A DNA stretch of 47,800 nt from Spirochaetia bacterium. GTDB lineage: Bacteria; Spirochaetota; Leptospiria; Turneriellales; JAOUFE01. The notes beneath the pieces were generated by a model. The model had not been told where the DNA came from and did not search any database. It was given only the letters and a program-made list of their open reading frames with translations. Position numbers and translations under genes: made by a program. Of this stretch, positions 17,194 through 39,555 are shown one piece after another. Location of the stretch: assembly GCA_029858425.1 (NCBI GenBank), contig JAOUFE010000001.1:1-47800 (forward strand), in the 5' to 3' direction. Within the stretch, counting starts at the first letter, position 1, and the number at the start of each line of letters is the position of its first letter.

Positions 17194-18015
17194 TTAAAAA
17201 TTGCTCTTTTGAAAAACTAAAAAAACCGTATCAGAAAACGCACACTTTGTCTGAATTTTGCTGTAGAAGTACTTCAAAAAAAATATATCTCCTCGAGGAA
17301 ATCTTTCCGGATGAATTCCCTCCGGATATATACTCATCAATTTAAATCCAAACATGCTGCAAATCTTTTTAATGCCGCTGCGGGTATAATCAATAAAATG
17401 ATCGGCTGGATGATTTTTTATCCATTCATTCATATGAAAATACAACCCTGGTCCAAAAGCATAGGGAATGGAAAGAATTAAAAACCCGTTATCTTTGATT
17501 AGCTTTGAAAAAGCCTGCCAGACTTGCTTTTGCGAGACAAAATGTTCTATGACATAAAATGCTCCAACGACATCATATTGTTCAGAAGATTTCTTCAACA
17601 GAGAAAAAAAATCTCCCTGGATTGTCCTGTTCCCGCAGGAATTGGCGTATTCTGTCATATATTTGGAAATTTCCCATCCCCTTGCCATCATTCCTTCTTT
17701 TTCTGCAATTTCCAGAAAGTACCCGGCAGCGGAACCTATTTCAAGCAATGTTTTATTCCTGAAATCAGGAACATATTGCGATAAATACTGCAATCGCTGC
17801 CGCATTTTTGATTGAATATTTTTTTTATCATCAAAATAACTTTTTCCGTATTGTTTTCTGTATTCGCCCTCAAAATAATTATCTTCGTAGACAATTTTTT
17901 GATAATGGGCATTAAATATATTCTTGCATGCAGGGCATTGATAAAAATGAGCACGCCATTGTTTTAATGGCTTATCGCAAAATACACACTCGTTGTTTTG
18001 TGAATCTCTGCTCAT
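17194..18015 (-). CDS. Class I SAM-dependent methyltransferase with N-terminal zinc-ribbon
   Basis: CVFCDKPL...CPACKNIF, then SAM motif I LLEIGSAAGYF and DVVGAFYVIEH. Confidence 0.75.
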   Translation of the reverse strand: MSRDSQNNECVFCDKPLKQWRAHFYQCPACKNIFNAHYQKIVYEDNYFEGEYRKQYGKSYFDDKKNIQSKMRQRLQYLSQYVPDFRNKTLLEIGSAAGYFLEIAEKEGMMARGWEISKYMTEYANSCGNRTIQGDFFSLLKKSSEQYDVVGAFYVIEHFVSQKQVWQAFSKLIKDNGFLILSIPYAFGPGLYFHMNEWIKNHPADHFIDYTRSGIKKICSMFGFKLMSIYPEGIHPERFPRGDIFFLKYFYSKIQTKCAFSDTVFLVFQKSNF

Positions 18016-18063
18016 TTATGGAAATCCATCCAAATCTCCCGAAAATGCAGAAGAGAGGTCTTG

Positions 18064-18080
18064 TCCATTTTTTAATATTC
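18064..18080 (+). repeat. 17-bp direct repeat TCCATTTTTTAATATTC, left copy flanking element B
   Basis: Identical to 18207-18223. Confidence 0.9.
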
Positions 18081-18206
18081 GAGCTTGGGCCGGAACTCGT
18101 AATTCAGTCAGAAAGATTTAAATTAGCGCGGTTTTGGTGCGCGAAGCGCCCCAAAACCGCGCATTTTAATACATTCTGACGTGAATATTGAGGTTCCAGC
18201 CTAAGT
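18081..18206 (-). repeat. Palindromic intergenic element, copy B (inverted relative to A, with an extra GC-rich inner hairpin)
   Basis: The reverse complement aligns to copy A along both arms (GGAACTCGTAATTCAGTCAGAAAG ... CATTCTGACGTGAATATTGAGGTTCC). The centre carries GCGCGGTTTTGGTGCGC-GAA-GCGCCCCAAAACCGCGC (18126-18162), in which 16 of 17 positions pair. Copy A lacks this insert. Confidence 0.75.
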
Positions 18207-18223
18207 TCCATTTTTTAATATTC
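18207..18223 (+). repeat. 17-bp direct repeat TCCATTTTTTAATATTC, right copy flanking element B
   Basis: Identical to 18064-18080. Confidence 0.9.
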
Positions 18224-18255
18224 TTTACACAAGGTTCAAAAAAATACCTGTTGGC

Positions 18256-19017
18256 TTGAATTGGGGGAATATGTATAAGTTAGTTTTGCTGCGACACGGC
18301 GAAAGCCAATGGAATAAGGAAAACCGGTTTACCGGATGGAAAGATGTAGATCTTTCCGAAAAGGGGGTTCAAGAGGCAAAAAATGCTGCAATGCTGCTCC
18401 GGCAGGAAGGTTTCAAGTTTGACCTTGCCTATTGTTCTGTGCTAAAGCGCGCCATTCGTACCCTCTGGATTATTCTCGATGATCTGGATTTAATGTGGAT
18501 CCCCATATTTAACCATTGGCGACTCAATGAAAGACACTATGGAAATCTTCAAGGTCTTAATAAATCGGAGACGGCCAGCCAGTACGGAGAAGACCAGGTT
18601 TTTCAATGGAGACGAAGTTTTGACTACCCGCCTCCAGCGATGGAAGTAAATGATGATCGATCCCCGGTAAAAGATGAAAGATATTCAAAGGTGGACAAAA
18701 GATTATTGCCTGTCGGAGAAAGCCTCGAATTAACTATTGAACGTGTTTTGCCGTTTTGGGCTGATCAAATTGCTCCATCAATTCTCTCCGGTAAAAAAGT
18801 CATTGTTGCCGCCCATGGAAATTCACTCCGCGCTCTGGTTAAATATCTGGACAATATGAGCAACGATGAGATTCCCCTTTTTAATTTTCCCACGGGAATA
18901 CCTCTGGTTTATGAGCTGGATAGCGAACTAAAGGCAATAAAGAAATATTTTCTGGGAAATTTAGATGAAGTAAAAAAAGCCCAGGAAGCAATACAAAATG
19001 AAGGTAAAAAAAAATAA
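18256..19017 (+). CDS. gpmA: 2,3-bisphosphoglycerate-dependent phosphoglycerate mutase
   Basis: [20 protein letters not shown] and AHGNSLRAL. The track start at 18256 is TTG. The ATG at 18271 ([11 protein letters not shown]) is the more likely start. Confidence 0.9.
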
Positions 19018-29073: not shown

Positions 29074-29162
29074 AGTATACCTTCTTTACTGACAATGTAT
29101 TGTCTTCCCGAGCAAAACGGCAATAATTTTTATAATTTCAGGAGGTTTAAACAAGAAAGACA

Positions 29163-29212
29163 GAGCGTGGGCAAGAACTTCCATATTCACGTCAAAATGT
29201 GGTAAAAAGCGT
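29163..29212 (+). repeat. Palindromic intergenic element, copy C (left half only)
   Basis: GAGCGTGGGCAAGAACTTCCATATTCACGTCAAAATGT matches copy A 2873-2899 at 25 of 26 positions in the core, and carries the shared end motif GAGCKTGGGC..GAACT. It ends 6 nt before the stop of the 967-aa TPR gene. Confidence 0.55.
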
Positions 29213-29217
29213 AGTTT

Positions 29218-32121
29218 TCACAGGTTTTCGAGAAACTTGCTTTCCGGAAAACTTTCTTTAAGTTTATCCTTGTATGTTTTATATTCATTGTTTTTTCCGG
29301 CCTGTTTAAAACAGGTTGCCGCTTTAAACAGAGCCTTTTCAAAAAGGTCGTGATTGCCCGAGTATAAATAAATTATTTTTGTATACTCTCTTGCCGCCAT
29401 AAGGTAGTCCTGCTTTGCAAACTGAATTTCTCCAAGATAATAAAAAGCCCAGGCGGCATAATATTCTTCATCCGTTTTTTGAACCACCTGCTTGAAGAAT
29501 TCCGATGCTTCGCCGTATTTTTGGGTTTCATAATATCCAAGCGCAAGGTAATACCGGGGCGCCACAGTAAGTTCTTTTATCGGGAGTAAAGACTTCATAA
29601 TCTCCGCAGATTTTGCATAATCTTTGTTTATTAAATAGACCCGTCCTTCCTGCAAACCCAAAGATGCCAGTAAAATTTTATCATCTGCTGATTTTTTTTT
29701 CTGCGTCTCAATAACCTCAAGCGCCGCAGAAGTATTTCCTCCGTCAATATACAATTGTACAATTTGCATGATGATTTTTAACCGGAATGGAGCATATTCT
29801 TCGGCATTACTGGTTAAAAGATCGCTGGCAATCGACAGCGCTTCTGATATATCTCCGGATTCCGAGTACATTTTAATTCTTTGAAATGAAACATCGATCT
29901 TTTGCTCAATTTTTTCCGAGTCCTTGATTATCATCTTGTAAATATTGTCTGCCTTTGAATAATTTTTATTTTTTCTGTAATAAGTACCCAGATTTCTTAA
30001 TATCTCGCCCAGATAAAGAGAATCCGGTTTGACTTTTTTGAAGTCTTTATATAGTTTTTCAACTTCTCCCGGATTTCCTTTTTCAAGCAAAGCATTGGCA
30101 AGGGTATAATTGGTTTCCTCTACAGAGTTGGATAAAGGAAATTCTCTCAAAAAACGTTTAAAATAGGTAATGGCATCATCGTTTTTTTTCATGGCATACA
30201 AAGTTTTTGCATAATCCAGCAGCGCTTTTTCCCGAAAAATATTTTCAGCCGGCGCCTTTCCATAAACATTCATAAACTCCGCCAGAGCTTCTTCGTATTT
30301 ATTTTTATTGTATAAACTCCAACCTTTAAAATATATAGCTTCTATTTGTCTTTTTCCATCCGGATACATTTCAAGATAATTATTAAAACTTTCAAGAGAT
30401 TTTAAAAAATCATTTTGCCTGTAATACACCCATGCAATTTGAAATTTTGCTTCCTGGGCGGCATCTTCATGGGGAAATTTTTTAATGATGCTGTTGTAAT
30501 AATTTACGGCCTGATCAAAAGCCCGTAAATTGTACATACAAGAAGCTATGGCAAGATGAACCTCTGATTTTTGCCTGTCCGTTTTTGCCGAAGCCTCGGC
30601 TCTCCTGAACGTATCCGAAGCGCGCGCATATTGCTTTAACTCAAAATAACTCCAGCCCACACCCATTTGGGAGTCAAAAAATCTTGAATGCGCGGGGAAA
30701 AAACGGATAATTTTGCTATAACTTTGCAGCGCTTTTGTATAATCGGTCAGGGCATAGTAAACCTCTCCATCAAGAAACCAGGCGTCCTGCTTCCATTTTG
30801 ATTTAGGATATTTCTCTTCAAGCTGACTGAGTACTTCAAGCGCAACGTTATACATTTGTCCTTTGAAATGACTCTGGGCTCTCATATACATTGCCTCTGG
30901 AGCCAAATCCGAAGCCGGAAATTTTTCGTACAATCTCTCAAAGGCCATTGCCGATCTTCTGAAATCGCCTGTCAAAAATAAAAGGTTTCCTTTTTTTTGA
31001 AGTATGGCAACCTCCGCATCGCTTTCTACTCCGAATCCGTCCAGAATCCGGTCATATATATCAAGCGCCTTGCCTGTCTGGCCTGTTTTTTGATAGCAGT
31101 CGGCAAGAAGTTCCAGAGATTGGGCATAAAATTCAATATTGGAATAGTTATCAATAACCTGAATATAATTCAAAGCTGCTTCCGCAAAATCTCCCTTCAT
31201 TTGAAGGATTTGTCCCTTCCGAAAATATACCGATCCTGTATCGCTCCACTTTGGATACAACTCCAGTATCTTGTTTAAATATTCCAGAGAATCATCCAGC
31301 GCGTTTAATTTGTATCGTGTCAAAGCAAGTTGATACATGGCCTCTGGCGCCAGATCTTTCCCTGTATACTTGTCCAGTACTGCAAGGAACTGTTTTTCAG
31401 CTTCCTTATATTTTTTTTCAGCATAGTATGTTTTCCCGATCCAGAGTTCGGCTTCCTGGACTTCCGTCGAATCTTCCATCGTCTGAATCATTTTTTGAAA
31501 CTGTTTGCGAGCCAGACCAAAATCTCCGTTATTATAGCGTGAAATTCCCAACTGGAGCGCCATTTTGGGCGCCACATTGCTTGCCGGGTACATCTCAAGC
31601 GCTTTCTCAAACTCGGCTACGGCATCGTCATATCGCTTGAGTATATTATAAATATAACCAATGGTATAATAGGCATACGCGGCATGTTTGTCTTCCGGAT
31701 ATTTTTTCACAAAATCATAGTGGCTTTGCAAAGCGCTTCGATAATCTTTTAAATAATAGTGGCATTCCCCGATCCAGTATTCGGCGCGAGAAGAAAATTC
31801 GGACATTGTATAATCGCGCAAAAAAACCTTAAACTCAAAAAGAGCAGAGTTGTAATCTTCTTCATAATAATACGTCAATGCAAGGTAATACTGCGCATCG
31901 TCGGCATAATCGCCCGTATGATCTTTGTGAATAATTTCCTGAAGCAACAGTCTTGCGCTGTAATAATTGCGTTCTTTAAATGCATTCATGGCCGCCTGAA
32001 AAGCTTTGCGGCTCATAAAATCCTGGGATGAAACTGCAGGAGAAAAAAAATACAGAGACAAAATAATCGACAAATAAAATATTTTGAAAATGTTTTTTAT
32101 GCAACCTCTGTTATAAAACAT
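29218..32121 (-). CDS. Large secreted TPR-repeat protein (YbgF/BamD-like repeats)
   Basis: 967 aa with a signal peptide (IFYLSIILSLYFFSPAVSS). Many Y-x-x-A/G TPR pairs run throughout (AQYYLALTYY, EYWIGECHYY). Confidence 0.8.
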   Translation of the reverse strand: MFYNRGCIKNIFKIFYLSIILSLYFFSPAVSSQDFMSRKAFQAAMNAFKERNYYSARLLLQEIIHKDHTGDYADDAQYYLALTYYYEEDYNSALFEFKVFLRDYTMSEFSSRAEYWIGECHYYLKDYRSALQSHYDFVKKYPEDKHAAYAYYTIGYIYNILKRYDDAVAEFEKALEMYPASNVAPKMALQLGISRYNNGDFGLARKQFQKMIQTMEDSTEVQEAELWIGKTYYAEKKYKEAEKQFLAVLDKYTGKDLAPEAMYQLALTRYKLNALDDSLEYLNKILELYPKWSDTGSVYFRKGQILQMKGDFAEAALNYIQVIDNYSNIEFYAQSLELLADCYQKTGQTGKALDIYDRILDGFGVESDAEVAILQKKGNLLFLTGDFRRSAMAFERLYEKFPASDLAPEAMYMRAQSHFKGQMYNVALEVLSQLEEKYPKSKWKQDAWFLDGEVYYALTDYTKALQSYSKIIRFFPAHSRFFDSQMGVGWSYFELKQYARASDTFRRAEASAKTDRQKSEVHLAIASCMYNLRAFDQAVNYYNSIIKKFPHEDAAQEAKFQIAWVYYRQNDFLKSLESFNNYLEMYPDGKRQIEAIYFKGWSLYNKNKYEEALAEFMNVYGKAPAENIFREKALLDYAKTLYAMKKNDDAITYFKRFLREFPLSNSVEETNYTLANALLEKGNPGEVEKLYKDFKKVKPDSLYLGEILRNLGTYYRKNKNYSKADNIYKMIIKDSEKIEQKIDVSFQRIKMYSESGDISEALSIASDLLTSNAEEYAPFRLKIIMQIVQLYIDGGNTSAALEVIETQKKKSADDKILLASLGLQEGRVYLINKDYAKSAEIMKSLLPIKELTVAPRYYLALGYYETQKYGEASEFFKQVVQKTDEEYYAAWAFYYLGEIQFAKQDYLMAAREYTKIIYLYSGNHDLFEKALFKAATCFKQAGKNNEYKTYKDKLKESFPESKFLENL

Positions 32122-39312: not shown

Positions 39313-39529
39313 AAATGTAATAAAATGCGCAGTTTTGGGGTTGTCAAGAAAGAAAAAATATCACCACGACGCACCAGAGCACACGGAGAAACTACGGAAA
39401 AATGCGTTTTGAGGCGTTTGTTCATCAAAATCTCCGTGGTTCCGTGGTTCATTGCCGACTTTTTAGACAACCCTAAAACTGCGTGAGTCTAAATCATTCT
39501 GACTGAATTTTCAGTTCATGCCCAAGCTC
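39313..39529 (+). repeat. Palindromic intergenic element, copy D (composite: core plus right arm, left arm missing, interrupted by a nested insert)
   Basis: AAATGTAATAAAATGCGCAGTTTTGGGG [insert] CCCTAAAACTGCGTGAGTCTAAATCATTCTGACTGAATTTTCAGTTCATGCCCAAGCTC aligns to the reverse complement of copy B and to the right arm of copy A. Confidence 0.6.
39340..39471 (+). mobile_element. ~132-bp nested mini-element with 13-bp imperfect terminal inverted repeats, sitting in the loop of copy D's inner hairpin
   Basis: The ends are GTTGTCAAGAAAG (39340-39352) and CTTTTTAGACAAC (39459-39471), whose reverse complement GTTGTCTAAAAAG matches at 11 of 13 positions. Internal inverted motifs are CACGGAG (39382-39388) and CTCCGTG (39432-39438), plus a tandem TCCGTGGT x2 (39433-39448). 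Confidence 0.45.
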
Positions 39530-39555
39530 TGAAACGCAAGCTATGAAACGCAAGC
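39530..39555 (+). repeat. Direct repeat TGAAACGCAAGC x2 (period 14) abutting element D
   Basis: 39530-39541 and 39544-39555 are identical and separated by TA. Confidence 0.8.

Follow-up and report, generated by a model that had tools for sequence, protein, structure and literature searches.

An odd insertion of an ordinary DDE-type MITE between divergent housekeeping genes of a Spirochaetia genome

In the window, that is, the whole 47,800-nt stretch of DNA analysed here, a palindromic element that we refer to as copy B lies between two divergent genes and is flanked on both sides by the same 17-mer. To the left is a class I SAM-dependent methyltransferase gene (17194-18015, minus strand; Methyltransf_23, E = 9.6e-16) and to the right a gpmA-like phosphoglycerate mutase gene (18271-19017, plus strand; His_Phos_1, E = 5.6e-36). 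The locus raises the question of how a direct repeat of this length came to bracket the element. A sequence-only reading had proposed that the repeat is a target-site duplication (TSD), and that its oversized length hints at an insertion mechanism of a different kind.

We found that TCCATTTTTTAATATTC, the 17-mer, occurs at 18064-18080 and 18207-18223 with no mismatch between the two copies, exactly as had been described. The window contains no further match even when two mismatches are allowed (0.07 matches expected; none of 100 shuffled sequences had at least two), and the whole genome (2,645,563 bp) contains the exact sequence at these two sites only, which also holds for the inner 15-mer. 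The unambiguous flanking duplication is the 15-bp sequence CATTTTTTAATATTC (18066-18080, repeated at 18209-18223), and 17 bp is the maximal reading, as the two bases TC that open the right 17-mer are also the end of the right terminal inverted repeat (TIR) of the element. Both junctions are identical in the ENA assembly ERZ27296335 (contig k141_686839) and in two Logan contigs of SRR7132115, a strain that differs from this genome by two SNPs in the methyltransferase leader. Because both junctions recur in these two other assemblies, the direct repeat is real and not an assembly artefact. The flanks are AT-rich, repeats tend to break assemblies and the Logan contigs do end inside the element, but with a repeat pair that is unique in the genome and identical in three assemblies we consider the probability of a chance match or an artefact to be negligible.

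Copy B itself is an intact, non-coding element of 128 bp on the plus strand, extending from 18081 to 18208. The earlier length of 126 bp is superseded because the family consensus ends in CTC, which places the last two bases within the right 17-mer. The left TIR, GAGCTTGGGCCGGAAC, occupies 18081-18096 and is directly abutted at its first base by the left copy of the repeat, and the right TIR, GTTCCAGCCTAAGTTC, occupies 18193-18208. Between the repeat copies the single-stranded DNA is predicted to fold into one long hairpin (-39.3 kcal/mol, z = -7.9). At its centre is the GC-rich hairpin with a GAA loop noted previously (18126-18162), which has arms of 17 nt with a single mismatch and recurs in most of the family's 128-bp copies.

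A blastn search with the element against the genome, in which the window is contig C70, returned 203 loci, approximately 70 of them near full length and the others single arms. Defining a complete copy by the presence of both terminal 16-mers with at most 4 mismatches each, we obtained 55 complete copies that fall into size classes of about 66, 95 and 128 nt; the family further includes mini-hairpins of 36 nt, in which a 4-nt loop separates the two ends. By consensus the element begins and ends with GAGCTTGGGCATGAAC...GTTCATGCCCAAGCTC, giving 16-nt TIRs with the terminal bases GAGCTTGGGC...GCCCAAGCTC, from which the sub-type of copy B is distinguished by its GAGCTTGGGCCGGAAC terminus, and the element is self-complementary over its whole length. 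For each complete copy we checked whether the k bases directly preceding the element recur as the k bases directly following it, and permuted the flank pairs to obtain the expectation. An exact 4-bp flanking repeat was found in 18 of the 55 copies, compared to a mean of 0.17 and a maximum of 3 in 5000 permutations, and the signal is confined to the 0/0 register. Because of this excess, seen in register only, the family is a bona fide non-autonomous MITE that makes a 4-bp TSD, which answers the question, posed with the original observation, of whether other copies carry flanking duplications at all. The duplicated 4-mers are varied (TTGA, GATT, CAAA, AGTA, TTAA, TACT, CCGG and others), and the 18 canonical insertion sites revealed no wider target consensus and no hot spot. 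The family thus shows several features by which prokaryotic MITEs are recognised: the element is non-coding and, at 128 bp, below the usual limit of about 500 bp, and it has dispersed copies, TIRs and a characteristic TSD length, from which copy B itself deviates with 15-17 bp.

A search for longer elements with the MITE TIRs at both ends yielded no consistent size class above 200 bp. Rfam has no entry for the family; the only matches were to eukaryotic microRNA hairpin families, at 24 bits where the cut-offs are 195-245 bits, and we dismissed these as generic hairpin matches. Of 40 relatives, only a same-genus MAG showed the family, in few copies, one of which is flanked by the TSD TCAC. This 128-bp copy is on a contig of 2590 nt (JAOUFY010000126.1) and its right flank is nearly that of the copy at C85:1-140 of the present genome, while the methyltransferases of the two genomes are only 59% identical; the near-shared flank is either a shared insertion or the product of a mis-binned contig.

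Three further members of the family are found in the window, all on the minus strand. Copy A (2864-2956) is without the central GC hairpin, its arms being joined directly, and has CTAAA flanks and a degenerate right end. The other two are a right arm only (29156-29218) and a left arm only (39475-39530), the latter running on into another repeat. Such single arms, in the window at 39380-39475 and in many half-elements genome-wide, often run into a second repeat family (...GGGTTGTCTAAAAAGTCG...CCACGGAG...), which indicates composite or nested elements. Separately, three perfect tandem copies of a 39-bp unit are present at the window edge (1-121).

Against this background, of the 55 intact copies only copy B has a long flanking repeat (15 bp in the strict reading, 17 bp with the TC), and this repeat abuts both termini exactly, as do the TSDs of the other copies. 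The closest relative of copy B in the genome is C114:31984-32111, with 99.2% identity, and the two form the closest pair in a family with a median pairwise identity of 78%; the sub-type consists of these two copies only. The twin ends in AAGTTC as copy B does and continues with a canonical 4-bp TSD, TACT, in flanks unrelated to those of copy B. Because the twin has other flanks and its own 4-bp TSD, the 17-mer is target sequence and not a sub-family variant, which upholds the view that it belongs to the flank: it is absent from every other copy, the twin included. The high identity of the pair relative to the family median also places copy B among the youngest insertions, an age that fits the perfect, undecayed state of its repeat.

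Two other copies have irregular flanking repeats. The full-length copy at C57:4429-4556 has an 8-bp repeat, GATATTGT, with a 1-nt offset at one end, which may be a second non-canonical TSD. At C114:9533-9649, a 5'-truncated copy of 91 nt lies between direct repeats of 13 bp (AAGGCTAAATGAT), whose final 6 nt are the element's own sequence at the truncation point; the copy looks like a one-ended or repaired insertion joined through this microhomology. Both cases show that off-rule events occur in the family.

Next we considered which transposase may move these elements. The genome encodes two IS1182-family transposases (C84:22454-23977 and C95:1078-2655; NF033551, 346 bits against a cut-off of 270 bits) and IS1182-like transposase fragments on C41, C124 and C132. 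The inverted repeat of the C95 element, 23 nt long and perfect, starts GAGCCTGTGCGCC and is in register with the MITE TIR; C41 and C132 have an element end in common, and their homology begins precisely at GAG (GAGCCTGTGCCGGAAC in C41, GAGTTTTGGCCGGAAC in C132). Overall, the IS1182-like ends match the MITE TIR at 12-14 of 16 bases in register. The left TIR of copy B agrees with the C41 end (C41:2123) at 14 of the 16 positions, for which the estimated chance over the sequence scanned is about 0.01. We therefore assign the family provisionally: most probably, it is mobilised in trans by an IS1182-family DDE transposase. The 220-contig MAG contains no IS with TIRs identical to those of the MITE, and its two full IS1182-like copies have no obvious TSD of their own. 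IS5-like elements (C115, C123) were rejected as partners, their ends (TAGGGYACCTCTAAAAACCC) being unrelated to the MITE ends.

The vicinity of the IS1182-like elements also contains MITE-like sequences. At C84:22312-22347 and C124:119-154, 36-nt mini-hairpins (MITE end, 4 nt, MITE end) are found 15-25 nt upstream of IS1182-like left ends, which suggests either that the IS targets these hairpins, in the manner of IS1272, or that the hairpins belong to the IS end. The C95 element (983-2761), with its perfect 23-nt TIRs at 983-1005 and 2705-2727, is directly followed by the MITE-arm-like sequence ACCTCAAATTCAGCC, and it looks as if the IS had replaced a MITE terminus.

In ISfinder, the direct repeats of the IS1182 family range from 0 to 60 bp. 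A MITE derived from an IS1182-family element and flanked by 4-bp direct repeats has been published in Methanosarcina acetivorans, with ISMac2 as the partner (PMC3852290). As in the family described here, these MITEs are small (160-169 bp, compared to 128 bp), non-coding and multi-copy, with TIRs, 4-bp direct repeats as the norm and ends like those of IS1182-family elements of the same genome. The present family differs in that it resides in another host phylum, is unrelated in sequence, folds over its full length into a single hairpin whose centre is GC-rich, has members of four nested sizes (36, 66, 95 and 128 nt), and includes, in copy B, a 15-17-bp duplication. IS1272/TnSha1 of Staphylococcus shares with our elements the transposase family of the likely partner, IS1182, whose members are known to target palindromes and to leave target duplications that are irregular or absent (PMC5678879, PMC4923244). 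IS1272 itself targets and replaces hairpins and leaves no duplication (PMC5678879; PMC4923244, after Siguier et al. 2015), whereas the present family makes 4-bp TSDs and the reconstructed target of copy B is not a hairpin.

Other intergenic repeats are more distant. The Correia elements of Neisseria (CREE/NEMIS) and the ERIC elements of enterobacteria are likewise intergenic palindromic repeats of about 100-150 bp that can occupy promoter regions or 5' UTRs. Correia elements duplicate TA and have a 26-bp TIR of their own; the present family differs from them by its 4-bp TSDs without consensus and by unrelated sequences. REP/BIME elements, which are palindromes of 20-40 nt with no TSD and are associated with the RAYT Y1 transposase, differ from the family, which has TIRs and 4-bp TSDs. 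The IS1202 group shows that target duplications of 16-17 bp occur in DDE elements, so that the length seen at copy B is compatible with DDE chemistry; in that group, however, a long TSD (16-28 bp) is the rule, the termini are TGT...ACA and the transposase is TnsB-like with 394-507 aa (PMC10132070). With GAG...CTC termini and a 4-bp rule, our family does not fit this group.

Because the family makes flanking duplications, a TSD is the best reading of the repeat at copy B, and the sequence-only reading was right in this respect. Its second suggestion, that the length betrays another mechanism, did not hold: because the norm is 4 bp, a length typical of DDE transposases, and the ends resemble those of the IS1182 family, the length is better taken as the mark of one aberrant event than of a different mechanism in the family. 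In our judgement, copy B is probably a single recent insertion in which the ends were joined to the target 15 nt apart instead of 4. In a normal move of the family, the two 3'-OH ends would attack the target strands 4 nt apart, and repair of the gaps would leave the 4-bp TSD. At copy B, we infer that a putative IS1182-family partner joined the strands 15 nt apart in one step, either because the two ends were joined in an uncoordinated manner or because the attack occurred one helical turn out of register on the A-tract-rich spacer. Repair of this wide stagger would have duplicated CATTTTTTAATATTC, and the additional TC match would be a coincidence with the TIR terminus. For DDE-type integrases, uncoordinated end joining is known to yield irregular duplications or deletions (PMC2857682). 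What speaks against such an event is that a stagger of 15 nt departs strongly from the norm and occurs in only 1 of 55 intact copies.

The same duplication could be reached by way of two canonical insertions, if two alleles with this MITE inserted 11 bp apart (TSDs CATT and ATTC) had been joined via homologous recombination within the element. Either end of the 15-mer (its first 4 nt and its last 4 nt) could pass for a normal TSD, and the family is abundant, with about 200 loci in the 2.65-Mb genome and a norm of strictly 4 bp, but this route requires a rare two-copy sub-type to have inserted twice within 11 bp, where a target consensus or hot spot is not apparent, followed by recombination and fixation, and all three assemblies contain the 15-17-bp form only, so we regard it as unlikely. 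Repair could also have acted after a single canonical insertion, with palindrome-provoked repair or replication slippage copying approximately 11 nt of flank across the element. Long palindromes are fragile, the element is a very stable hairpin, and the microhomology at C114:9533-9649 implies that repair-type events occur at these elements. At copy B, however, both TIRs are present and the element is intact to its last base, the duplication abuts both termini precisely, and no simple slippage path leads across a 128-bp insert while leaving the insert untouched, all of which makes a later repair improbable.

Two further explanations were considered. A tandem pair of the 15-17-mer, for example a doubled promoter or operator, may have existed before the MITE landed at its junction without a TSD, in the way that some IS1182-family members such as IS1272 insert (PMC5678879, PMC4923244). 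This would require a base-precise insertion at the repeat junction by a family that makes 4-bp TSDs, none of which is present at copy B; the 17-mer is found nowhere else in the genome and a comparable spacer is absent in relatives, and we find the idea quite implausible. Alternatively, copy B may have been cross-mobilised by a transposase that makes long TSDs, for instance of the IS1202 group (16-28 bp) or of the IS481 type. DDE families with TSDs of 16-17 bp exist (PMC10132070) and the genome encodes four rve-type transposase ORFs, but these are 330-360 aa long compared to 394-507 aa for the IS1202-family enzymes (PMC10132070), those families end in TGT...ACA where the MITE ends in GAG...CTC, and the twin of copy B has a 4-bp TSD; we give this explanation very little credence indeed. 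All four accounts are rated low because they need more steps or do not agree with a repeat that abuts both intact termini exactly. An IS1272-type duplication of a target hairpin was likewise rejected as the source of the length: the reconstructed 112-nt spacer has no significant structure (z ~ -1).

The single wide-stagger insertion, which we prefer, presupposes a spacer with one copy of the 17-mer, and in the pre-insertion sequence that we infer for the site, the 17-mer lies in the middle. Adjacency of the methyltransferase and gpmA genes is absent from 20 relatives, in which the nearest methyltransferase is 59% identical; the homologues of the methyltransferase indicate Leptospirales/Turneriella as relatives. 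Metagenome contigs scanned for exact matches to the right junction or the empty site gave none, a protein-guided scan of such contigs recovered only a relative with 24% identity, and a search of 5.8 billion proteins returned no homologue with an identity below 100% and above 58%. Apart from this genome, the same proteins are found only in the assemblies ERZ27296335 and SRR7132115, where the site is filled as well.

The sequence-only reading had further proposed that the insertion split and duplicated a promoter shared by the two genes, placing the repeat copies 48-49 nt from the divergent ATG codons. The distance is correct for one copy (48 nt), the other being 47 nt from its start codon. The promoter proposal, drawn only from the -10-like hexamers TAATAT and TATTAA, found no support in a sigma-70 consensus scan of 17950-18330, which returned no promoter-like site and no terminator on either strand. 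A related idea, which we offer tentatively and consider rather unlikely, is that on bent A-tract DNA the transposase may use a second joining register, shifted by about one helical turn (4 + 11 = 15 bp), and that the insertion may have been kept since, through the duplication, each of the divergent genes has an intact copy of a shared AT-rich core promoter to itself. One may speculate that a normal 4-bp insertion at this site would have cut the shared promoter. If this were true, oversized-TSD insertions of MITEs would allow overlapping divergent promoters to be separated with their function preserved.

Taken together, these results identify copy B as an odd insertion of an ordinary DDE-type MITE between divergent housekeeping genes, and they contain no evidence that copy B matters for host physiology. 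For annotation, the boundaries of the element and its 4-bp TSD rule are now fixed, and for the MITE family, which takes up much of the intergenic DNA in an uncultured Leptospirales lineage, there is a first pointer to a transposase family, IS1182. For transposon biology, the locus offers a clean off-register insertion, with 15 bp at copy B and 4 bp at its twin, within the same family and genome. Natural outliers of this kind can reveal how strictly IS1182-type transposases keep to one geometry of target capture.
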